From an uncultured Acidimicrobiia bacterium (GTDB taxonomy: Bacteria > Actinomycetota > Acidimicrobiia > Spongiisociales > JAENVV01), in NCBI GenBank assembly GCA_964196085.1, contig CAXMSI010000002.1, forward strand, positions 1 to 27,857: a stretch of DNA of 27,857 nt, read 5' to 3'. The notes beneath the pieces were generated by a model. It did not search any database, was not told where the DNA came from, and worked only from the letters and a program-made list of their open reading frames with translations. Every line of letters starts with the position of its first letter. The first letter of the stretch is position 1. Positions 9,400-19,638 of this stretch are shown piece after piece. A program made the position numbers and the translations under genes.

Positions 9400-9972
9400 G
9401 ATCTAATGGCAGATGAACTCGACGAGTTGGTGGCTGGCATCGTTGCGGGAAGCAACGAGGCCTTTCACCGCGTGTATCACCTCCTCGCAGGCCAACTCGC
9501 CGGCTTTGCTTTCCGTCAGCTCCGAGACCGAGGAGCAGCCGAGGACACTGTGCAACAGGCGTTCCTTGAGTTGGCCCGAACATCAGACGATTTCCGGGGC
9601 GACGGCCGAGGCCTTAGATCTTGGCTGTACGCAAGTGTTCGGTTTCGATGTGCCGATGAACATAGGCGCAGAGCACGCCGACAAGAACGCCCCACTGACA
9701 CCGTCCCCGACGCCCCTGCTCTCGAACCAGTCGACAATGAACTCAGTCCCGAACTCGTGTCTGCCCTTCAAACTCTCAACCCCCGCCAACGCGACATGAT
9801 TGAGCTACGCCACATTGATGGGCTGAGCGGACAAGAGATAGCTGACGTGCTGGGGATGCGGCGCCCGGCAGCATATGCTGCCCTCGACCGAGCCGAAGCT
9901 GCCCTACGTAAAGAATTCGGCCATCGACTCGCACCCGGCGTCTCTACCAATAATGAGGAGAGGAGCACCTGA
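9397..9972 (+). CDS. ECF sigma-70 factor
   Basis: Region 2 AEDTVQQAFL...LRSWLY and region 4 LNPRQRDMIELRHIDGLSGQEIADVLG. Start is GTG 9397 or ATG 9406. Confidence 0.92.
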   Translation: MDLMADELDELVAGIVAGSNEAFHRVYHLLAGQLAGFAFRQLRDRGAAEDTVQQAFLELARTSDDFRGDGRGLRSWLYASVRFRCADEHRRRARRQERPTDTVPDAPALEPVDNELSPELVSALQTLNPRQRDMIELRHIDGLSGQEIADVLGMRRPAAYAALDRAEAALRKEFGHRLAPGVSTNNEERST

Positions 9973-10037
9973 TCACACCACGGGACCCATTTGAGGAACT
10001 CACCAACGTCCAAGGCTTCTCCATAGAGCAAGACACC

Positions 10038-10598
10038 ATGGACTCTCACCTTGCCGAGATTGACACTGTTCTCGCTTCACGACGGGCGACACCAGTCAGG
10101 AAGGTGAGGCTGCCGGTAATGCGATGGGTTGCCGCAGCCGTAATCCTGCTCGGCATAGGTGCCCCGACTGTCGTAGTCGCATCAGCCAACAGCCTTCCAG
10201 GGGATCTGCTCTACCCCATAAAGCAGATCGTTGAGCCCATCTTGATTCGTTTCGACCCTGAAGTCGTCGCTCGCCACCGCATCGAGGAGGTCATAGAATT
10301 GCGCGTGCGGAACCTCCCAACTGACGACGTTCTCCGCGAAGCCGAAGAGGCAGTGGACCGCCTGCCATCAGACTCGCCACTCCGTGATGAACTCGCCGAC
10401 CTCGAGACCCGGGATCAACCCAGCGACTCACCACCAACGAGCACCGTGCCACCTACTGACACCACTGGGCGCCCGCCTGAGACCTCGACACGAACCACCC
10501 AAGCGTCAGACATCTCTGGTGCCACAGTCCCAAGAACCACAACCGTCACAACTCCACCAGATAGAACCACAACCACCCCGCCTGAGGGTGACCGCTGA
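10038..10598 (+). CDS. Putative membrane-anchored anti-sigma factor (DUF5667-like domain, Thr/Pro-rich tail)
   Basis: One TM helix followed by ANSLPGDLLYPIKQIVE (DUF5667-like), directly downstream of the ECF sigma. The frame is open upstream to 9957, so the true start may be earlier. Confidence 0.7.
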   Translation: MDSHLAEIDTVLASRRATPVRKVRLPVMRWVAAAVILLGIGAPTVVVASANSLPGDLLYPIKQIVEPILIRFDPEVVARHRIEEVIELRVRNLPTDDVLREAEEAVDRLPSDSPLRDELADLETRDQPSDSPPTSTVPPTDTTGRPPETSTRTTQASDISGATVPRTTTVTTPPDRTTTTPPEGDR

Positions 10599-10705
10599 GG
10601 CAGAGGTCTCGACCTATCGAGAATAGAACGCAGAAAGGCAAGGTCAGCACGCCCTAGACGCCGGCATGAAAGTAACCCCTGGGGGGAATTGAGCAGCCGG
10701 GTCGG

Positions 10706-11068
10706 CTACTCCATTTCCTTGTCTTGTTCGGACTCGTACTTTGACAAGGCCATGAGAAACATGGTCATCAGGATCAACGAAGCGATCATCCAAGTGAGTG
10801 GAATGATTCGAACTTCAAAAGCATTCATGCCATCGATATCTGCTGGACGTGGTCCACGGGGGGCGTAGAGCACAAACAGCAGCGAGTTGATCGATGTCCA
10901 GGCGAATAGCGCTGCCCCAGAGACCAAGAAAGCGAGCTTTTTGCCCAGGTTCGTCGCGTTGAGAAGGTAAGTGGTCCCATAGAACGTGATAACGGCACCA
11001 ATAGTGATCAGAATCCCGGTCACGAAGAGGTTGGCAGAGAGGAGTCCTCTCATGAATTCCCTAATCAT
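10706..11068 (-). CDS. Small membrane protein, last gene of the cytochrome bc operon
   Basis: Three hydrophobic segments and TNLGKKLAFL. ATGA overlap with the cytochrome c stop codon. Confidence 0.75.
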   Translation of the reverse strand: MIREFMRGLLSANLFVTGILITIGAVITFYGTTYLLNATNLGKKLAFLVSGAALFAWTSINSLLFVLYAPRGPRPADIDGMNAFEVRIIPLTWMIASLILMTMFLMALSKYESEQDKEME

Positions 11069-12450
11069 TCGTCACCTCCAACGTCTGGTCCGCCCAGTGT
11101 TGGGCCCCATAGATACTCTGCGATCAGCTCAAGTTCTTCTTGGGTGAGTAGCCCTCCGAAGCCCGGCATGAAGCCTCGGCCAATGCCGTTGATGCCGTAG
11201 GCCACACCCGAATCTGATCCCGAGGAAATGAAACCGGCGAGGTCACCAACCTCAGCGAACTGCACGTGGGCTCGTGGTGGCAGGAGCGAAGGGCCGAAGC
11301 CACCAGACGCTATTGGCAGTACAAACGGGGACCCAGCCGAGTATCCAGCCGTGTGGCATCGGGCGCAGTTACCCGAGAAAAGGTTTATTGCCTGGGTGGC
11401 CTTTTCCGTATCCCCATCAAAAGTTGCATTTGCAACCGCTTGCACATCAACCGTCCAGTAGGCCGTTTCGGCTGAGGCGATGAGATAAGCCAAGCCACCC
11501 TGAAGTTGGGCAATCACCGCATCAGCACTTTCAGAGAACACCTCAACCGTACTTGTAGCCGACGCGACTAGGTCGGCCTGTTTACTAGCCACGACAAGGT
11601 CGGACTCGATTGCATTTGTTACTGGGTTAAAGCTGTCAAGCGTTATTGCGCTCAGGCCACTTTCGTAGTCGGTCAGCCCAGCAATAAGGTTCTGCATTGC
11701 AACGTTGATCCGTTGCGCTTCATCTACCCGCCCTGGAGCGGCGTGGGCTGCAGCTAGCTTGACTTCTTGAGCGGCGATCATGGCCTCGAGGTTCGCCTCA
11801 GCATTGTTTCGGTAGCCGTCAGCGGCTGAAACTTCGGCTGCCATCACTTCGACAGCTTCGTCTTGCGGTAACTGCTGCTCTTGGAGATAGTTGAGGATAT
11901 CTTCAACCTGTTGATCGTTCAAGACCCCGCCACCGGCTGTTCCCCAAGCTGGCATTGGCGTACCAGCTCGGCCAAAGACAATCCAGAACTTGACCTCTTC
12001 GCGGGAGTATCGGTACAAGATGGTGTCGAGACGCGGTGCTCCCCAAGTCGTGGAGACTTCTGATTGCGGGTGGATTGTCCCTGCCGCTCCGCCTACGAAC
12101 CCAGGCCCATGGCACCCCTGACAATCAAAACCGCCTTCTGCGGTGGTCGCAGACAGCGCAGCACCACGCTCAAGCGACTCTTCGGCGAAGGCTTCAATGA
12201 AGTCGCCCTGCCGATCTCGTTCGGTAAGGAAATACAGCGGAAGTGTGACGGCAGCGAACGCAGCGAAGATCAACGACCAGAACAAAGCGCGCTCGAGCCG
12301 AGACGTCTCGAGTTCCTTGTTGGACATTGGGGGAGCGAGGTTGGCTGGCACCTCTTCTTGAGCCTGTGATCGCACGGTGGAAACCATGAGGTAGGCAAGC
12401 CAACCAACGATGGCAATGGCAACAAGAACAACAGCGAGACTGTTGATCAC
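11065..12450 (-). CDS. Membrane-anchored di-heme c-type cytochrome of the bc complex (QcrC-like role)
   Basis: Two N-terminal TM helices; CQGCH with distal MPAWG and CARCH with distal MPGFG; a long helical linker between the two domains. Confidence 0.9.
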   Translation of the reverse strand: MINSLAVVLVAIAIVGWLAYLMVSTVRSQAQEEVPANLAPPMSNKELETSRLERALFWSLIFAAFAAVTLPLYFLTERDRQGDFIEAFAEESLERGAALSATTAEGGFDCQGCHGPGFVGGAAGTIHPQSEVSTTWGAPRLDTILYRYSREEVKFWIVFGRAGTPMPAWGTAGGGVLNDQQVEDILNYLQEQQLPQDEAVEVMAAEVSAADGYRNNAEANLEAMIAAQEVKLAAAHAAPGRVDEAQRINVAMQNLIAGLTDYESGLSAITLDSFNPVTNAIESDLVVASKQADLVASATSTVEVFSESADAVIAQLQGGLAYLIASAETAYWTVDVQAVANATFDGDTEKATQAINLFSGNCARCHTAGYSAGSPFVLPIASGGFGPSLLPPRAHVQFAEVGDLAGFISSGSDSGVAYGINGIGRGFMPGFGGLLTQEELELIAEYLWGPTLGGPDVGGDE

Positions 12451-12466
12451 AACGAAGCCCCAGAAC

Positions 12467-13321
12467 TCAAATACATGACGGACCCTTCGGGTACTTCACG
12501 CTCTTATCCGAAGAGCGGGCAGTATTAACGATGCTTCCGGTCTTTGCGATGAGTCGATTCTTGTCATTGATTTCGACGACGAAACGGTCGAGGTTCCTAG
12601 GTGCCGGCCCTGCTTCGTACTCGCCCAGAGCGTTGTACTTTGAGCCGTGACAACCGCACTCAAACCCCTTAGATGAATCGCACCAAGGGACACGGCAACC
12701 CAGGTGAACACAAGTCATGAACAACGCGGTGAGCCCGCCAACTACGGTGGAGTTCTCCTCGAATTGGGATCCGGTGGCCTCCTCTTCGTTGACCGGCACG
12801 ATCCACGCGCGGGCTTCAGCCCAGAAGAGTGGCGAGACAGACCCGTCAGGAAGCCGGACAGCTGCGAGCAGTTCGTCGGCATCCCCAAGATCGATGTCAG
12901 CACCGAACCCGCCACTTACCACCGGCCACATCATCGCAAGCGTACTGAGGCCGAGCGTTCCCAGATAGGCAAAAAACACCATTGCCATTGCTTTGCCGAA
13001 GAAATGGCGCCGGTTGGCTCCTGCTTCCTCTTCAGAAATCTCTACAACTTTGACAACCTCAACCGACCTAACGACAGGCACACTTGCGTCATCATCTTCG
13101 TCTGCCGCGACCAGTAAATCACCTTCGCCAGCCTCGTCTTCGCCATCAGCAGTAGCCACCACCACCGGATCGATAGCTCCCCGATCAGCCTTCGCCGCTG
13201 CTGGCTGCACTTCGCTGCGCCAGTCAGCCGTCGCGGACGATGAACGCCGAAAAGCTACAGCGAAGAGCCCAATGAGGGCGAGTACAAACAGGGAACCGAG
13301 CCCAACTATCAGACTATCCAT
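12467..13321 (-). CDS. qcrA: Rieske 2Fe-2S subunit of the cytochrome bc complex
   Basis: Rieske boxes CVHLGC and CGCHGSKY; GPAPRNLDRF; internal twin-arginine motif NRRHFF before the second TM. Confidence 0.93.
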   Translation of the reverse strand: MDSLIVGLGSLFVLALIGLFAVAFRRSSSATADWRSEVQPAAAKADRGAIDPVVVATADGEDEAGEGDLLVAADEDDDASVPVVRSVEVVKVVEISEEEAGANRRHFFGKAMAMVFFAYLGTLGLSTLAMMWPVVSGGFGADIDLGDADELLAAVRLPDGSVSPLFWAEARAWIVPVNEEEATGSQFEENSTVVGGLTALFMTCVHLGCRVPWCDSSKGFECGCHGSKYNALGEYEAGPAPRNLDRFVVEINDKNRLIAKTGSIVNTARSSDKSVKYPKGPSCI

Positions 13322-14123
13322 GATGCAGCTCCGGGAAGAAGATCCAGTCCTTCAGGTCGTCAAAGAAGATTCCATCGTTCCAGGGGTACGTGAAGTTAAA
13401 GCCGGGACCCCTGAAGAGCACACCAATGATGGTGAGCGTTGCCGAACCCATCATGAATATGGTGTACATAAAAATTGCAAACTTACGATCAGACGGCTTG
13501 TTTGACGGGTTCTTGTCAACGTACGGAATAGCCATGAACCCAATCATTCCAGTAATAGTTGGTACCGAGACTCCGGCAATCTGTGGGTCGAAGTACGACA
13601 ACAGTTCCTGAAGTCCGAGGAAGTACCACGGGGCCTTCGACGGGTTAGGCGTGGCATTGAAGTTGGCCGCTTCAAGAAGCGGAGCCTGAAGGATGGTCGA
13701 CAGTATTACCAGCAAGGCAAGCATCGCCAAGAGAGCTCCCAACTCAACGACCACGAGATGGGGCCAGGTGTTGACCTTGTCAGTAGGAGTTGACTTGGCA
13801 CCCTGAATGGCCTTGGCTCGGACAACAGTCAGGAGTCGCTGCGTGCGAACACCTTCGGGACCGGTTTGAGCAGGCTGGGTTGGACGGACCAGCGTTGCTT
13901 GGCCAGGAGTCGAAGCAGCCGGCGAGTGTTCAACCGTTGCGGGCTCAGCGGCTACTGGCGCTTGTTCTACCGCCGCTGGCTCGACTGGGGCGGGAGCCAC
14001 TTCGGCGACTGGAGTCGGCGGAGCCTCACCAGTCATTTGAGCCATAGCCTCGGCTACGGACACGCCCAATGCAGCAGCCCTTGCCTCCGCTGAACGTTGA
14101 AGAAGATGGTCTGGAATCTGCAC
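13314..14123 (-). CDS. Cytochrome b C-terminal part (subunit IV / PetD-like) with an N-terminal tag and Pro/Ala linker
   Basis: TPNPSKAPWYFLGLQELL (PEWY-equivalent), IPYVDKNPS and three TM helices. Confidence 0.9.
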   Translation of the reverse strand: MQIPDHLLQRSAEARAAALGVSVAEAMAQMTGEAPPTPVAEVAPAPVEPAAVEQAPVAAEPATVEHSPAASTPGQATLVRPTQPAQTGPEGVRTQRLLTVVRAKAIQGAKSTPTDKVNTWPHLVVVELGALLAMLALLVILSTILQAPLLEAANFNATPNPSKAPWYFLGLQELLSYFDPQIAGVSVPTITGMIGFMAIPYVDKNPSNKPSDRKFAIFMYTIFMMGSATLTIIGVLFRGPGFNFTYPWNDGIFFDDLKDWIFFPELHHG

Positions 14124-14134
14124 GATCGAATCTC

Positions 14135-14896
14135 CTATAGCGGCCCTGAAATACCGCCATCCTTACGAACTCTCCAGAAGTGGACAGCCATAAAGAAGAT
14201 GATGACGAACGGGAAAAAGATCACATGCAGCGTATACCAACGGAGCAACGTGTCAGCTGAAACTGCGTAGGCTCCGAGGAGCAAGAATTGAACCCCGCCG
14301 CCGAAGACCGGGACAAATGAAGCCATGTTGGTTCCGACTGTCACTGCCCACAAAGCAAGCTGATCCCACGGGAGCAGATAGCCAGTGAAGGAAAGCAGCA
14401 ACGTGAGGAGCAAGAGGATGACGCCAACCACCCAGTTGAACTCACGTGGTGGCTTGTAGGCTCCGTGGTAGAACACACGGCTCATGTGCAGGAAGACGGA
14501 AAGCACCATGAGGTGAGCACCCCATCGATGCATGTTTCGTACAAGCGAACCAAATGCGACGTCAGTGGAGAGCTGTTGGATGTCCTCGTAAGCCGCCGCA
14601 GCTGTAGGCGCGTAGTAGAACATCAGGAAAATTCCTGTGATGGTCAGCATGATGAAGAGAAAGAAGCTGATCCCACCAAGGCAGAGGGTGTAGGAGAGCC
14701 GCACCCCGTGACGCTTCACCTTCACTGGGTGGAGGTGATAGAGCACGTTGTTCATGATCACGTACGAGCGGTTTCGCGGGCTGTCCGAGTATCCCTTCTT
14801 GAAAGGGGAGCCAGGACGAAGGATCGAGTCCATGAGGGAGCTGCCGTGAAGGTCTCCGGGGGCACCTTTGAGTTTCTCGATAAGAGTCTTAATCAT
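14135..14896 (-). CDS. qcrB: Cytochrome b N-terminal part (cytochrome b6-like, four TM)
   Basis: Heme His pairs in MHRWGAHLMVLSVFLHM and LHVIFFPFVIIFFMAVH; FTGYLLPWDQ; ends in GISGPL; Cys in YTLCLGG. Confidence 0.95.
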   Translation of the reverse strand: MIKTLIEKLKGAPGDLHGSSLMDSILRPGSPFKKGYSDSPRNRSYVIMNNVLYHLHPVKVKRHGVRLSYTLCLGGISFFLFIMLTITGIFLMFYYAPTAAAAYEDIQQLSTDVAFGSLVRNMHRWGAHLMVLSVFLHMSRVFYHGAYKPPREFNWVVGVILLLLTLLLSFTGYLLPWDQLALWAVTVGTNMASFVPVFGGGVQFLLLGAYAVSADTLLRWYTLHVIFFPFVIIFFMAVHFWRVRKDGGISGPL

Positions 14897-14901
14897 GGTC
14901 C

Positions 14902-15348
14902 TTACATTCCTCGTACGCCATAGACGTATCCGTTCTTATGGTCGCGGGCGCCCGTATCGACTGCCCAAGGGGACGGAAGTTCAGCTTCTGTGGCCTGGGC
15001 GGCGACTGAACCGTCAAACTTTCCAAGCGTGATGACGTTGGTAGGGCACCGATCAATGCACAGCGCGCACCTTGTGCATGTGTCCTCGTCAACCATGAAA
15101 AACCCAAAGTTCTCCATGTCGTCATTGGGGTTTGTTACATCCTTTGCGTCCGCAATAGCGTCTGTTGACAAATAATGAATGCACTTCCACGGGCAGATGT
15201 CAACACACCCTTCGCACAAGATGCACTCGGACTGGTTGATGTGGAGGAACTGCTTCGGCTTGAGATTGTCTGAGAGGTAACCAGTGTCAACAAGGGCAAG
15301 CTGGTAATCATCACGCATTGGCGGAATTTCGAAATAGGTATCTGCCAT
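14902..15348 (-). CDS. 2x[4Fe-4S] dicluster ferredoxin
   Basis: CILCEGCVDICP and CTRCALCIDRCP. The ATG at 15348 overlaps the upstream TAA (TAATG). Confidence 0.92.
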   Translation of the reverse strand: MADTYFEIPPMRDDYQLALVDTGYLSDNLKPKQFLHINQSECILCEGCVDICPWKCIHYLSTDAIADAKDVTNPNDDMENFGFFMVDEDTCTRCALCIDRCPTNVITLGKFDGSVAAQATEAELPSPWAVDTGARDHKNGYVYGVRGM

Positions 15349-15947
15349 TACGAAGAGACCTTCAGCGGACGACCGTACGGTGACGTGGTGTCGCGCTCTG
15401 ATGGTGCGGCAGGAGGCATCTTGCCCCACTTTTGCACCATGACGGCGAAATAAATCACAATCGCAAGCGACCCAAGATGATAGCCACCAGCAATAGCGTC
15501 CTTAACAAACGCTCCATATACGGGGAGATCGAGGCCCGGAATAGTGAACAGCGCATCTTGAGATGTCCACCCGAGCGGACCTTGAGTGAGATTGAGCCAT
15601 TCAGAAGGAACGACGCCCCAGAGCAAGATGAGTTCAAAGAAAGAAATGAACGCAGCAAACCCAGCCCTCGCCCAACTGAGCTTGCGCCCAGCTACATACT
15701 TGAGTGCGATGCCAGCGAGAAGCAGCTGAGAGCCGCCGAAGCCAATGATGTGGCCAGCAGTGAAGACGGGCCATCCCTTGGGGAAGGTTTCGAGGTAGCC
15801 AGCATCAGTGGGAAGTCCACCAGCATGAGCAATGAATACTCCGAGCGCCAAGGCTCCTAGCCCGAGAGCCATAAGCGCAGCGGCAAGTCTTCCCCTTTTG
15901 GAGTCGCTAATACTTGCTAGCCAGATCCACACACGGTTGGGATTCAT
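15348..15947 (-). CDS. Hypothetical membrane protein, first gene of the cytochrome bc operon
   Basis: About four TM helices; motifs VPSEWL and TSPYGRPL. ATG 15947 lies downstream of AAGGA. The 282-aa ORF-track call is over-extended through the promoter region. Confidence 0.75.
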   Translation of the reverse strand: MNPNRVWIWLASISDSKRGRLAAALMALGLGALALGVFIAHAGGLPTDAGYLETFPKGWPVFTAGHIIGFGGSQLLLAGIALKYVAGRKLSWARAGFAAFISFFELILLWGVVPSEWLNLTQGPLGWTSQDALFTIPGLDLPVYGAFVKDAIAGGYHLGSLAIVIYFAVMVQKWGKMPPAAPSERDTTSPYGRPLKVSS

Positions 15948-16163: not shown

Positions 16164-17579
16164 TTGGTCACTACCAACGCACCCGCCACCACCCAAGTAG
16201 CGGGACGAACCGACGCTACAGCCAAGTGGGCGCTCCTTATTGGGGCCTTCCTCCTGGCGGCGGCCACGGCCATCTTGTTCATGGCCTGGACGGTATTCAC
16301 GGTTCCGTCAGAAGGAGCTGGATTCCTCGGCTTTGGTCGCCTCTTTCCAATGGCTACCACGCTCACTGTCTTTGGAGCCTTCGTAGCCCTGAACCTGGGC
16401 GTATTGCTCTTTCTTCTCCCTCGCCTCACCGGTGCATCCACCAATCGTTCCGGCACCCTTGCCGCCTTGTTCTGGCTCAGCACAGTCTCAGCCGTGGTCG
16501 GAACTGGAGTAGTTGGGTTCGGCGGCACCGATGGAAGGCAAGGATTTGAATTGCCGTGGCTCGCAGAACTGCTCCTAGTTCTGGGTGTCGGCGGGATTGC
16601 AGTTATAGCAATCAAGGCCCTTTTTGATCGCAAGGAGGATTCGATCTATCCAACCACCTGGTTCATGGTGGGAGGCTTGCTCTCTTTCATCACGGCAATC
16701 GCTGTCGCTAATCTCCCGATCGCTCGGGGGCCAGGAGCCGGTATCCCAGTAGCCTTTGGCCGGGGCGTAGTGCTTTGGGTTTGGATTTTAGGATTCGCAA
16801 TTGGTGCCATGCTCTACCTCGTACCCAAGGAAAGCGGCCGGCCGCTTTTTAGCCGTCAGGTCGCAATAGGTACCTTTGTGAGCCTCATGATGGCGGGCAT
16901 GTTCTACGGACTGTCCACCACACTCTTCGGACCGCTGCCTGATTGGGCAGAAACCGTCGGGGTTGCCATGGGACTACTGCTGCTGGTGCCTGCTGTCACG
17001 GTTCCCGTCCTCCTCGTCAAAACCCTCGACGGTGCCTTCGATCAACTGCAAACTTCTGTTCCCTTGCGGTTCGCTGTTGCCGGCGTAGTTGCCTTCAGCC
17101 TCGGCGCTGCTGTCTCGGCGATCAGTGGGCTTCGTTCATTCGCTGAACTCCTCGGCCTAACAACCTTCCGAGACGGCACCGAAACACTCCTTGTGTTCGG
17201 GGCAGGCATCCTGCTGACATCAGCCTTCGTGTATCACGCAATACCTCGGCTAACCGGCCGCACCCTCCACTCTGAGCAACTAGCTAAACGACACCTTCAA
17301 TTCACCGTGGTTGGTGCCGGTGGAATCACCGTCCTCTTATGGCTCTCTGGGATCGCGACAGGAAGCACCTGGTTGGCTGGAATCAAGTCCAGCCTGTTCG
17401 CCGCATCAGGAGAAGGCTTCTCAGCTTCCTTAACTGCTTCAGAATGGGCCCATCCGTGGCTCCTACTTTCGGGATTCATCCTCTTTCTTGGACAGCTGAT
17501 ATTTGTGACCAACCTGTACCGGACGCTTATCTCAGGTGATGTTGCCCCGGTAGAGATCGTCACGGAGGTGTCCGAGTGA
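16164..17579 (+). CDS. cbb3-type heme-copper oxidase subunit I (CcoN) homologue lacking the canonical His ligands
   Basis: About 12 TM helices with CcoN scaffold motifs FGRLFP, QGFELPW, IYPTTWF, YLVPKESGRPLFS, LPDWAETVG and YHAIPRL. TTG at 16164 follows AAGGAG (GTG 16131 is an alternative). Confidence 0.85.
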   Translation: MVTTNAPATTQVAGRTDATAKWALLIGAFLLAAATAILFMAWTVFTVPSEGAGFLGFGRLFPMATTLTVFGAFVALNLGVLLFLLPRLTGASTNRSGTLAALFWLSTVSAVVGTGVVGFGGTDGRQGFELPWLAELLLVLGVGGIAVIAIKALFDRKEDSIYPTTWFMVGGLLSFITAIAVANLPIARGPGAGIPVAFGRGVVLWVWILGFAIGAMLYLVPKESGRPLFSRQVAIGTFVSLMMAGMFYGLSTTLFGPLPDWAETVGVAMGLLLLVPAVTVPVLLVKTLDGAFDQLQTSVPLRFAVAGVVAFSLGAAVSAISGLRSFAELLGLTTFRDGTETLLVFGAGILLTSAFVYHAIPRLTGRTLHSEQLAKRHLQFTVVGAGGITVLLWLSGIATGSTWLAGIKSSLFAASGEGFSASLTASEWAHPWLLLSGFILFLGQLIFVTNLYRTLISGDVAPVEIVTEVSE

Positions 17580-18331
17580 GCGACTTCCTTACCGCAGCCG
17601 CCACCAACATCGGTGCTCCAGAAGATCTCGTCAAGCGATCAGCTGATGCGCGATCAGAGGCATCGGGATCCAGCGTTGACGATATCCTTGCCGCCTGGGC
17701 TGGCGGAGCGGCAGCACCCGTGGCCGCCGAATCCCCTGCACCGGACGCTGCTATCGCCCCAGAAGCCAATCCGGCCGAACCAGCTGTGTCCTCAGCGCCC
17801 TCAGCCGCCCCAACAGCGCGGGTGGTCACGGTCAGAGACCCTGAGGCTGCCCCGATACTCGTTGGCCGAAGAGAGAGCCCAAAAGCCATGATCCTCACGC
17901 TCCTCGGCCTACTGGCGTTCGGCGTGCTTGTAGGCGCATGGCTGCCGGCGGTGGCCGCGTCCCAAGAGGCCTCGAACCACGTCACCGCCCAACCTCTGTA
18001 CTCGGCAGATGCTGAACTGGGCCGAGAAATTTACTTGGCTGAGGGCTGCTCGACTTGCCACACTATGTCGGTGCGCTCCCTTGAGGTTGACGCCGGCCTT
18101 GGCCTGATCACCGAGCCCGAAGATATTGCAAACTTTTTTGAATCCGTCGAAGGTGTCCGTCGAATCGGGCCAGATCTGGCTCATATAGGCGAACGTATGG
18201 AAGCTAAAGACATTAAAGCCTTCGTCTCAAACCCAACCTTCGTGCGAGCTGACGCTCACCACCCGCCATACAAGTACTTGTCTGCAGATGAAATTGATGA
18301 CCTGACCACATTCCTCTCGGAGACGAAGTGA
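17576..18331 (+). CDS. CcoO-like mono-heme cytochrome c (cbb3 subunit II homologue) with an N-terminal tag
   Basis: GREIYLAEGCSTCHTMSVR and RRIGPDLAHIG match CcoO; one TM helix; GTGA overlap with the upstream gene. Confidence 0.85.
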   Translation: MSDFLTAAATNIGAPEDLVKRSADARSEASGSSVDDILAAWAGGAAAPVAAESPAPDAAIAPEANPAEPAVSSAPSAAPTARVVTVRDPEAAPILVGRRESPKAMILTLLGLLAFGVLVGAWLPAVAASQEASNHVTAQPLYSADAELGREIYLAEGCSTCHTMSVRSLEVDAGLGLITEPEDIANFFESVEGVRRIGPDLAHIGERMEAKDIKAFVSNPTFVRADAHHPPYKYLSADEIDDLTTFLSETK

Positions 18332-19638
18332 TGAGCGACTTCCTATCCGCTGCCGCTAACAACATTGGGGCACCAGAAGAGCTCGTGCAGCGCTCAGCTG
18401 AAGCGAGAGCAGAAGCTACCGGAGCGTCGGTCGAAGACATCTTGGCCGAGTGGGCGGGCGGCGCAGCTGCATCCTCTCCCCCACAAGCTAAGGCGCCAGA
18501 AGCCGAAGCATTAGCATCAACTCCTGCACCGCCCGCGGAGACTCAGATAGAGCCTGCAGCACCAGTCATCGACATCCCCACCAGTCCAGCCGGCGGGCAA
18601 GTAGTCAGAGCGTTCCTCCCAACTCCGGCCACGGTCACACGAGCAGAGGCCATGGCATTCGACCAGGTCACCACCGTTGCCGCTGCCGGGCTCAAGGAGC
18701 GGACCTCGGTGAGAGTCCCTCGCTGGCTGGTGGCCATCTTTGCTGCAATCCCGATCCTTGCTGGTGGATACCTCATCGTGAACTCCGGTGGGGTTGAATG
18801 TGGACAGGCCGGACAACTGGGTGTTGACTTTGCTGGGAACCTCCAGACATGTGAGCAACGAGCCTACGACTTCACACCTGGCGCCTCTGGCGGGGGCGAA
18901 GGCATCGACCTCGTTGCCGAACTTCAGGCCGGAGCGGGGCTCTATCTTGCTGAGTGCTCCTCTTGCCACACAACGGACGGGTCAGCAGGCGTTGGCCCTC
19001 AGCTCAACGGCGGGGCAGTGCTTGAGACCTGGCCAGCATGCACCGATCATTTCAACTGGGTAGCAAGCGGTAGTGCTGGATGGAGCGAAGCAACTTACGG
19101 AGCTCAAGGTAAGCCAGTTGGCGGCGGCGGGCAAATGCCAGGATTCATCCCCAAGCTCACTAACGATCAGATCACTCAGATCGTGCTCTACGAACGAGTC
19201 ACATTTGGCGGTCAGGACATCAGCGAGGCCGGAGAAGACTGCGGCTACGAACTAGAAGCCCCCGGTGTCGAAGGTGAACCAGTAGCCAGCGGCGTTGACG
19301 CCATCGCTGAGCTCACCGCCGGCAAAGAGATCTACACGGCGCGCTGCCAGGCATGCCACCTTGAAGATGGAAGCCAAGGCGTTGGCCCGGTCCTCAACGG
19401 CGGGGCAGTGCTCGAGACGTTCCCAGCATGCGATGCTCAAGTTGAGTGGGTCGGGCTCGGAAGCGCTGCTTGGCCTGAAGACACGTATGGGGCTCAAGCA
19501 AAGCCAGTTGGCTCGGGGATGCCGGGATTCTTAAGTCAAATCAGTATCGACGAAATCAAACAGGTCGTCTTCTACGAGCGAGTTGCATTCGGTAATGCCG
19601 ACCTCGAACAAGCAGCAGCCGACTGCTTCGGCGCTTAA
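18331..19638 (+). CDS. Membrane-anchored di-heme cytochrome c with two duplicated domains and an N-terminal tag
   Basis: CSSCH...QMPGF and CQACH...GMPGF; one TM helix; start is GTG 18328 or ATG 18331. Confidence 0.9.
   Translation: MSDFLSAAANNIGAPEELVQRSAEARAEATGASVEDILAEWAGGAAASSPPQAKAPEAEALASTPAPPAETQIEPAAPVIDIPTSPAGGQVVRAFLPTPATVTRAEAMAFDQVTTVAAAGLKERTSVRVPRWLVAIFAAIPILAGGYLIVNSGGVECGQAGQLGVDFAGNLQTCEQRAYDFTPGASGGGEGIDLVAELQAGAGLYLAECSSCHTTDGSAGVGPQLNGGAVLETWPACTDHFNWVASGSAGWSEATYGAQGKPVGGGGQMPGFIPKLTNDQITQIVLYERVTFGGQDISEAGEDCGYELEAPGVEGEPVASGVDAIAELTAGKEIYTARCQACHLEDGSQGVGPVLNGGAVLETFPACDAQVEWVGLGSAAWPEDTYGAQAKPVGSGMPGFLSQISIDEIKQVVFYERVAFGNADLEQAAADCFGA
18991..19431 (+). repeat. Internal domain duplication (390-bp offset)
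   Basis: 18991-19041 and 19381-19431 are near-identical and share the exact 20-mer CTCAACGGCGGGGCAGTGCT. Confidence 0.85.

Follow-up and report, generated by a model that had tools for sequence, protein, structure and literature searches.

What does a soluble two-cluster ferredoxin do in the operon of a respiratory cytochrome b complex? The question is raised by a 27,857-nucleotide stretch of DNA from an uncultured Acidimicrobiia bacterium (contig CAXMSI010000002.1 of assembly GCA_964196085.1; hereafter the window), where the gene for a 2x[4Fe-4S] ferredoxin directly precedes that for a cytochrome b6-type protein with the haem ci (or cn) cysteine. For cyclic electron flow through b6f, a soluble ferredoxin was suggested long ago as an electron donor to haem cn. 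Whether ferredoxin electrons can enter haem ci/cn has been debated from the first b6f structures (2003) onwards, and photosynthetic membranes make it hard to study this step in isolation. We report here a comparative analysis of this operon in the Acidimicrobiia and other Actinomycetota, of a paralogous operon in the same genome that encodes a flavoprotein, and of the closest known complexes. As a result, we consider the ferredoxin very probably a stoichiometric subunit on the cytoplasmic (n) side of the complex.

The ferredoxin and cytochrome b6 genes and their conservation

The operon occupies positions 10706-15947 of the minus strand, to which all its coordinates below refer, and comprises seven closely packed genes according to the open reading frame (ORF) calls in the window. 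The ferredoxin (148 amino acids (aa), 14902-15348; identified by Pfam Fer4 families and alignments) is encoded by the second gene, followed by the cytochrome b6-type subunit (253 aa with four transmembrane (TM) helices, 14135-14896; PF00033, PDB b6 chains, and NCBIfam) and by a subunit IV-like protein, SUIV (269 aa, 13314-14123; PF00032, the APWY motif, and synteny). The stop codon of the first gene, for a small membrane protein, overlaps the ferredoxin start codon (TAATG), and the 5 bp GGACC separate the ferredoxin stop codon TAA from the b6 ATG, which bears out the spacing given in a preliminary description made from the letters of the window alone. These junctions indicate that the operon genes are probably translationally coupled. 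The ferredoxin start was set at the ATG at 15348 (M28 of a longer GTG ORF), from which alone the relatives align; the ORF finder had placed it at that GTG, 27 codons upstream.

In a HMMER search of all PDB chains, residues 69-253 of the b6-type subunit aligned with residues 32-215 of cytochrome b6 (E 2e-48), and the b6 matches, with E-values from 2e-48 to 5e-47, came from Chlamydomonas, spinach, Nostoc, and Mastigocladus. Cys72 (YTLCLGG; codon TGC, 14681-14683) matches Cys35 of b6, to which haem ci/cn is bound, and 'ytlCLGGIS' lies over 'ifyC[IL]GGIT', so that the CxGG cysteine is at the Cys35 position. The four haem b ligands H123, H137, H224, and H239 align with b6 H86, H100, H187, and H202, and the protein also has the equivalent of Arg207 and the b6-type C-terminus GISGPL. 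Among NCBIfam models it matches cytb_ExtP with 303 bits and the b6 model PRK03735 with 219 bits. Thus both features that the preliminary description had read from the letters, a cytochrome b split over two genes and a haem-ci cysteine in YTLCLGGISF, are found here: PF00033 and PF00032 match consecutive genes, and a four-helix cytochrome b with four histidines stands beside a separate three-helix subunit IV. We infer a covalent haem on Cys72; the b6-type subunit most likely carries this third haem, ci, at the cytoplasmic quinone-reduction (Qi) site.

The N-terminal extension of the b6-type subunit is basic, with an isoelectric point (pI) of 10-11, and a long stretch of it is invariant in an alignment of 37 sequences from across the phylum. 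The invariant positions include three histidines, H54, H56, and H63 (YHLHPVKVKRH, 14708-14737), that lie just before helix A. For Kuenenia complexes, AlphaFold3 modelling predicts that a histidine near the N-terminus of each cytochrome b monomer ligates an additional haem b on the n side (PMC12954380).

The ferredoxin has two CxxCxxCxxxCP cluster motifs, CILCEGCVDICP and CTRCALCIDRCP, at 15193-15225 and 15046-15078, and its eight cluster cysteines are invariant in all 52 aligned ferredoxins. The protein is acidic (pI 4.3) and has no TM helix and no signal peptide; being soluble, it should therefore lie on the cytoplasmic side, where the Qi site and haem ci also lie. The first cluster motif is directly followed by two further residues that are likewise invariant in 52/52 sequences, an additional Trp54 and, as the ninth cysteine, Cys56 (CPWxC, 15181-15192). 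The tails at the N-terminus and the C-terminus are invariant among 12 close relatives aligned, and the C-terminal tail of the Acidimicrobiia type (GYxYGxR) is missing from the ferredoxins of other classes. When the ferredoxin alone was modelled by AlphaFold2 (AF2) with the 52 sequences, the dicluster core reached a predicted local distance difference test (pLDDT) score of 74-87, and the C-terminal tail, residues 111-148, fell from 63 to 38. The invariant tails and this low-confidence C-terminal segment fit a part of the protein that would become ordered on a partner.

Automatic database names for the ferredoxin are a generic 4Fe-4S protein, 'NuoI', and 'NADH-quinone oxidoreductase subunit I'. 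We rejected an identity with NuoI/NdhI, as the protein scores 42 bits against the 113-bit cut-off of TIGR01971 and its gene sits in a b6 operon. A Foldseek search with the ferredoxin model returned only generic dicluster modules (FwdF, NdhI/NuoI, and HdrA; best E 3e-3). We also discarded about a dozen longer proteins as candidates for natural fusions of ferredoxin and b6: all are singletons, most have Arg/Pro-rich out-of-frame stretches that point to frameshifts, and the two that look clean, P0007 and P0011, were not counted as evidence.

The gene pair is widely conserved. Within the order, 37 of 40 genomes encode a ferredoxin orthologue with 57-83% identity (a tally that includes the unpublished G025 and G036), and a pattern scan found ferredoxin relatives in at least 555 genome_contigs records. 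The order membrane protein, ferredoxin, b6 is kept in 92/92 Acidimicrobiia loci, followed by SUIV, Rieske protein, cytochrome c, and a second small protein wherever the contig reaches. Median identities to the window proteins across these loci are 80% for b6, 72% for the ferredoxin, 64% for SUIV, 59% for the small protein, 48% for the Rieske protein, and 37% for both cytochrome c and the membrane protein. The ferredoxin is thus the second most conserved protein of the operon and, at 72% as compared with 48%, more constrained than the catalytic Rieske protein.

In an even sampling of the phylum, a profile search detected small ferredoxin homologues (frames of 116-150 aa, E 1e-20 to 1e-49) in 87 of 201 Actinomycetota genomes. 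In loci from about nine other families, including other classes, the ferredoxin gene is followed by b6 in 14/14 cases, and by SUIV, Rieske protein, and cytochrome c in the 13 whose sequence extends far enough. The retention of the ferredoxin and of the cysteine in orthologous operons, on which the proposal in the preliminary description depended, therefore extends well beyond the class: YTLCLGG[LIM] stands in 87 of the 91 b6 matches from Acidimicrobiia (the other four were presumed truncated, without inspection), and the Cys, the Leu, and both Gly residues of TxCLGG are invariant in all 37 phylum-wide b6 sequences. With conservation in more than 100 genomes, neither the arrangement nor the cysteine is due to chance. 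The Atlas gave weak leads for the ferredoxin family in Spirochaetota and Acidobacteriota. The phylum-wide ferredoxin and QcrB tallies include the unpublished genomes G042, G058, G087, G127, G158, G184, and G210; no locus that was retrieved or aligned stems from a genome flagged as unpublished.

The distribution of cytochrome b genes assigns this complex a central place in respiration. Among 20 near-complete relatives (the unpublished G025 included), nine have a single PF00033 match, which is each time the ferredoxin-linked b6. No QcrB-type long cytochrome b was found in the genome of the window or in any genome sampled from its order, and just 2 of the 14 genomes sampled from the class have one. 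Five relatives with only the ferredoxin-type complex all encode a canonical A-family oxidase (E about 1e-155). Acidimicrobiia use menaquinone. In the Acidimicrobiales, the ferredoxin-b6 complex is thus, by its predicted gene content, the housekeeping complex III of aerobes. In several families outside the Acidimicrobiia (G131, G091, G219, G133, and others), the ferredoxin-b6 operon and a QcrB-type complex coexist.

A paralogous flavoprotein operon and the role of the ferredoxin

The genome of this aerobic actinobacterium has a second Rieske/cytochrome b operon, at L093:3420-8353 (contig C25, bases 9419-14352), which is anammox-like in architecture. Its products are two cupredoxins and a flavoprotein of 598 aa (Fer4_20/Pyr_redox_2) that has a 2x[4Fe-4S] domain at its C-terminus, followed by a cytochrome b with WYLGV and no ci cysteine, a subunit IV with APWY, and a Rieske protein of the twin-arginine translocation (Tat) type (CACHGSTF). 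Operons of this type are kept in 14 further loci across the phylum. Residues 1-113 of the window ferredoxin align with residues 465-582 of the flavoprotein (29% identity, E 3e-15), and among 1.84 billion representative proteins searched with a profile, the next relatives after its own family and fragments are the C-termini of proteins of 550-700 aa. Both results indicate that the small ferredoxin corresponds to the flavoprotein domain that is encoded immediately before cytochrome b. Trp54 and Cys56 are absent from this homologous domain, which has CPVDV there.

The two lineages differ at the haem-ci position. In a joint alignment, 14/14 flavoprotein-linked paralogues have W[YF]LGV or xRLG[FY] in place of CxGG, with no cysteine and without GISGPL at the C-terminus, and 9/9 ferredoxin-linked b6 proteins have YTxCLGG and KDGGISGPL. 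Within the phylum, it is the stand-alone ferredoxin, rather than the flavoprotein, that accompanies the haem-ci signature, a co-occurrence that fits the link between haem ci and ferredoxin put forward in the preliminary description. The same description had asked for a flavoprotein partner in orthologous operons, and on this point the outcome is divided: no flavoprotein is encoded in the window operon or near the 14 other-family loci, and the paralogous operon does fuse the ferredoxin domain to a flavoprotein for flavin adenine dinucleotide (FAD) and nicotinamide adenine dinucleotide (phosphate), NAD(P). We dropped the idea of a flavoprotein head supplied in trans for the four of five near-complete genomes, all with the ferredoxin-type complex only, in which no homologue of the head was found; the ferredoxin does not, therefore, simply wait for such a head.

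The following mechanism may account for these observations. On this view, the operon encodes a menaquinol:cytochrome c oxidoreductase of the split b6/subunit IV type, belonging to the APWY clade of Kao & Hunte 2014 (PMC4122944), which is subfamily G of Dibrova et al. (2013/2017, PMC5600118). The ferredoxin would be a free-standing counterpart of the 2x[4Fe-4S] domain at the C-terminus of flavoproteins, by which these are thought to plug onto cytochrome b in the paralogous complexes and in those of the anammox type. The acidic core with the two clusters would dock on SUIV and on the basic N-terminal extension of b6, and the conserved tails would become folded only through this contact. The status of a dedicated subunit, also proposed in the preliminary description, appears well supported by comparative genomics, namely by the coupled gene, its place upstream of b6 in every locus, the 72% identity, and the kinship with the cytochrome-b-adjacent domain of the paralogue.

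Beyond this, we lean slightly towards the view that the ferredoxin, with its two clusters, is a wire that links haems bn and ci to a partner in the cytoplasm. The two clusters would form a short path between these n-side haems and a soluble redox partner, along which electrons could move in either direction. In the inward option, they would pass from a low-potential donor through ci to menaquinone, a flow that is downhill in any case. In the outward option, the low-potential branch of a quinol bifurcation would reduce the clusters. The S-Y signature of the Rieske protein combined with menaquinone leaves room for a very low-potential haem bp (by a symmetry argument, PMC12954380), which makes outward flow to the iron-sulfur (Fe-S) clusters thermodynamically conceivable. 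That the complex III as a whole has a built-in ferredoxin port at the haem-ci site, working as a low-potential donor:menaquinone reductase or as a quinol-bifurcating enzyme, is a tentative and rather doubtful proposal.

Several points weigh against the wire. Physical binding, electron transfer, and its direction are inferred here. An AF2 model of ferredoxin, b6, and SUIV as one tethered chain (the read-through translation of locus L013, with stops replaced by Gly as a tether only, run as a single chain with a 37-row alignment) had a mean pLDDT of 49 and a predicted template modelling score (pTM) of 0.30, too poor for any conclusion to be drawn from it. The co-occurrence of the haem-ci signature and the ferredoxin represents only one or two evolutionary events, because the two paralogous lineages are old, and the flavoprotein-linked paralogue has an Fe-S module alongside a cytochrome b that lacks the ci cysteine. 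Bacillus-type b6c complexes have haem ci with, to our knowledge, no ferredoxin gene in the operon, so a ferredoxin is not generally required for ci. To these can be added the lack of a detectable flavoprotein head in four of the five genomes mentioned above. The cluster cysteines are needed for the fold, and hence their conservation is no proof of a catalytic wire. Finally, as the sole Rieske/cytochrome b complex with cytochrome c in the Acidimicrobiales, the complex must sustain an ordinary Q cycle, which limits the electron flux that can leave via the ferredoxin.

The last two of these points and the missing partner flavoprotein also favour the alternative that survives best, which we still regard as unlikely: the ferredoxin would be bound to the complex with its clusters off the catalytic path, as a structural cap or assembly scaffold of the n side, or as a sensor of redox state or oxygen by which the complex is tuned. 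As a scaffold, it may hold together b6, SUIV, the upstream membrane protein, or the neighbouring oxidase module that lacks ligands. The tails, invariant in close relatives and with a low-confidence C-terminal part in the isolated model, agree with such a role, and the absence of the GYxYGxR tail from other classes suggests lineage-specific protein contacts. A dicluster ferredoxin is, however, a costly scaffold to keep phylum-wide, and in the paralogous flavoproteins the homologous domain evidently wires FAD and Fe-S clusters to cytochrome b (PMC12954380).

We consider it improbable that the ferredoxin serves the maturation of haem ci, as a cytoplasmic reductant for the thioether between the haem and Cys72 that would replace the cyanobacterial and chloroplast CCB system. 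A search of 21 genomes (20 of them at least 90% complete) for CCB1 (PF12046) gave no match, and a control Synechococcus genome was matched; this result fits the published statement that the attachment of haem ci outside cyanobacteria and plastids is unexplained (PMC5600118). The ferredoxin also co-occurs with the cysteine, and the paralogue that lacks the cysteine has no small ferredoxin. Firmicutes, however, which are likewise not known to have CCB1, attach haem ci with, as far as we know, no ferredoxin gene in the operon; furthermore, the ferredoxin is homologous to a subunit domain of the paralogous complexes, and its level of conservation and translational coupling match those of a stoichiometric subunit. 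The least probable view, that of an ordinary soluble ferredoxin merely co-transcribed and serving other enzymes, would agree with the lack of a membrane anchor, the generic or 'NuoI' names in public databases, and the generic Foldseek matches, but not with a place directly upstream of b6 that is invariant across classes, with family-specific invariant residues and tails not seen in generic ferredoxins, or with the kinship to the cytochrome-b-adjacent flavoprotein domain.

Other operon proteins and the neighbourhood

The first gene of the operon (15348-15947) encodes the 199-aa membrane protein, with about 3-4 TM helices by ORF, translation, and hydropathy. It has no match in Pfam or NCBIfam, and its relatives in the Atlas are Actinomycetota hypothetical proteins only. 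A gene for a small protein with 2-4 TM helices directly precedes the ferredoxin gene in most loci of other classes as well (L104-L117; crude ORF and hydropathy scan), and the C-terminal ends of these upstream proteins are conserved, as YGRP in Acidimicrobiia and GGY[RK] elsewhere. The upstream small membrane protein is probably a further subunit.

SUIV has an Ala/Pro-rich cytoplasmic N-terminal extension of ~115 aa, and its quinol-oxidation (Qo) motif APWY comprises residues 164-167 (13623-13634). The Rieske [2Fe-2S] protein (284 aa, 12467-13321) was identified by PF00355, by matches to b6f Rieske models of NCBIfam, and by its motifs, box I CVHLGC (12695-12712) and box II CGCHGSKY (12635-12658). 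At its N-terminus there is an additional TM helix, with an acidic linker of ~80 aa, followed by a Tat-like RRHFF anchor. Under the rule of PMC4122944, its S-Y signature predicts a potential above 260 mV; this 'high potential' signature occurs despite the use of menaquinone in the class. The next gene (11065-12450) encodes a membrane-anchored dihaem cytochrome c of 461 aa, recognized by PF13442, PF00034, its motifs, and synteny, with haem-binding motifs CQGCH (12109-12123) and CARCH (11353-11367). Its stop codon overlaps the start of the last gene (ATGA), an ORF at 10706-11068 for a small membrane protein of 120 aa whose position is kept across loci.

A CcoN-like operon lies divergently upstream of the b6 operon in the Acidimicrobiia loci. 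SUIV and the CcoO-like and CcoP-like proteins have in common an N-terminal motif of ~30 aa, P[ED].L[VL].RSA.AR..A.G.SV...LA.W, that precedes Ala/Pro-rich linkers and is encoded at 14019-14123 on the minus strand for SUIV, and at 17576-17710 and 18328-18465 on the plus strand for the CcoO-like and CcoP-like proteins, respectively. The motif may serve these proteins as a shared tag for docking or assembly in the cytoplasm.

Comparison with known systems

Part of this picture is already known. A split b6, the APWY motif, and the CxGG cysteine in the APWY clade, including one Acidimicrobiia species (Ilumatobacter), were published in 2014 (PMC4122944), flavoprotein-cytochrome b architectures have been described for subfamily G and for anammox complexes (PMC5600118, PMC12954380), and the same two papers contain the proposals of bifurcation. 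Our literature search, whose coverage excluded most subscription papers, found no description of a stand-alone ferredoxin in the b6 operons of Acidimicrobiia or other actinobacteria, and was likewise silent on its phylum-wide invariance, its homology to the flavoprotein domain, and its association with the ci cysteine.

The operon brings a haem-ci signature and an adjoining ferredoxin-like gene together in non-photosynthetic aerobes, and the class has cultured members, among them Ilumatobacter, Iamia, and Acidimicrobium. Such non-photosynthetic relatives could be used to ask whether ferredoxin electrons reach haem ci, and the same phylum offers a natural contrast in the paralogous complex, which has a full flavoprotein head and no ci cysteine. 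If the ferredoxin port is real, it spans deep-branching Actinomycetota and belongs to the only complex III of abundant aerobic Acidimicrobiia, and inward flow through it would be the activity long proposed and never proven for b6f. The analysis also recasts the respiratory chain of a class that is widespread in the sea and in soil and is without the textbook bcc complex of actinobacteria, and flags 'ExtP' for the b6-type subunit and 'NuoI' for the ferredoxin as likely misannotations.

The first of these labels comes from the Geobacter ExtO/ExtP/ExtQ system (PMC5877670): the window b6, at 303 bits against the equivalog cut-off of 290, is a close relative of ExtP. We rejected an Ext system here, given that SUIV scores 55 bits against the ExtQ cut-off of 150 and that rhodanese, porin, and multihaem cytochromes are lacking. 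The Ext cluster, for selenite and tellurite reduction, has no ferredoxin (PMC5877670), and the 'ExtP' label for the window protein would be a naming artefact.

The actinobacterial QcrCAB (bcc) complex of Mycobacterium and Corynebacterium resembles the window complex in phylum, dihaem cytochrome c, extra N-terminal helices of the Rieske protein, and menaquinol as the likely substrate. It differs in that QcrB is one long chain of cytochrome b that lacks the ci cysteine, and that bcc has no ferredoxin; the window b6 scores 114 bits against the 500-bit cut-off of the bc1_QcrB_actin model (NF050120). The b6f complex of cyanobacteria and chloroplasts and the Firmicute b6c complexes (Bacillus QcrABC, Heliobacterium) are alike in the four-helix b6 with subunit IV, Cys35, Arg207, and GISGPL. 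In contrast to the window operon, they have a PEWY or PDWY motif at the Qo site instead of APWY, and cytochrome f or a fusion of SUIV with cytochrome c instead of a separate dihaem cytochrome c. We know of no ferredoxin-like subunit encoded in a b6f or b6c operon, and the lack of CCB1 in the 21 genomes is a further difference.

With the APWY clade (PMC4122944), the window operon shares the split cytochrome b, APWY in subunit IV, the CxGG motif, and an S-Y or S-F Rieske signature (CGCHGSKY in the window, of the Mid+ to high-potential type). The window has TLCLGG where the clade usually has WCMGG, and the examined parts of the two papers on this clade (PMC4122944, PMC5600118) do not mention a gene for a stand-alone 2x[4Fe-4S] ferredoxin.

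The anammox complexes of Kuenenia (kuste4569-4574 and kustd1480-1485), which include an NAD(P) oxidoreductase subunit, differ in that they have a multihaem or HAO-like protein in place of the dihaem cytochrome c, and the window host is an aerobic heterotroph. The window operon encodes the dicluster module only, without an FAD/NAD(P) head, and the flavoprotein-linked paralogue of Actinomycetota has no ci cysteine; the comparison with Kuenenia is based on published descriptions of its complexes. In AlphaFold3 models of the anammox complexes, the flavoprotein lies on the n side with an Fe-S chain leading toward haems bn and cn, and bifurcation toward NAD(P)+ via such n-side chains has been proposed (PMC12954380). 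What these complexes have in common with the predicted complex of the window is a b6-type core with haem cn and an n-side Fe-S module.

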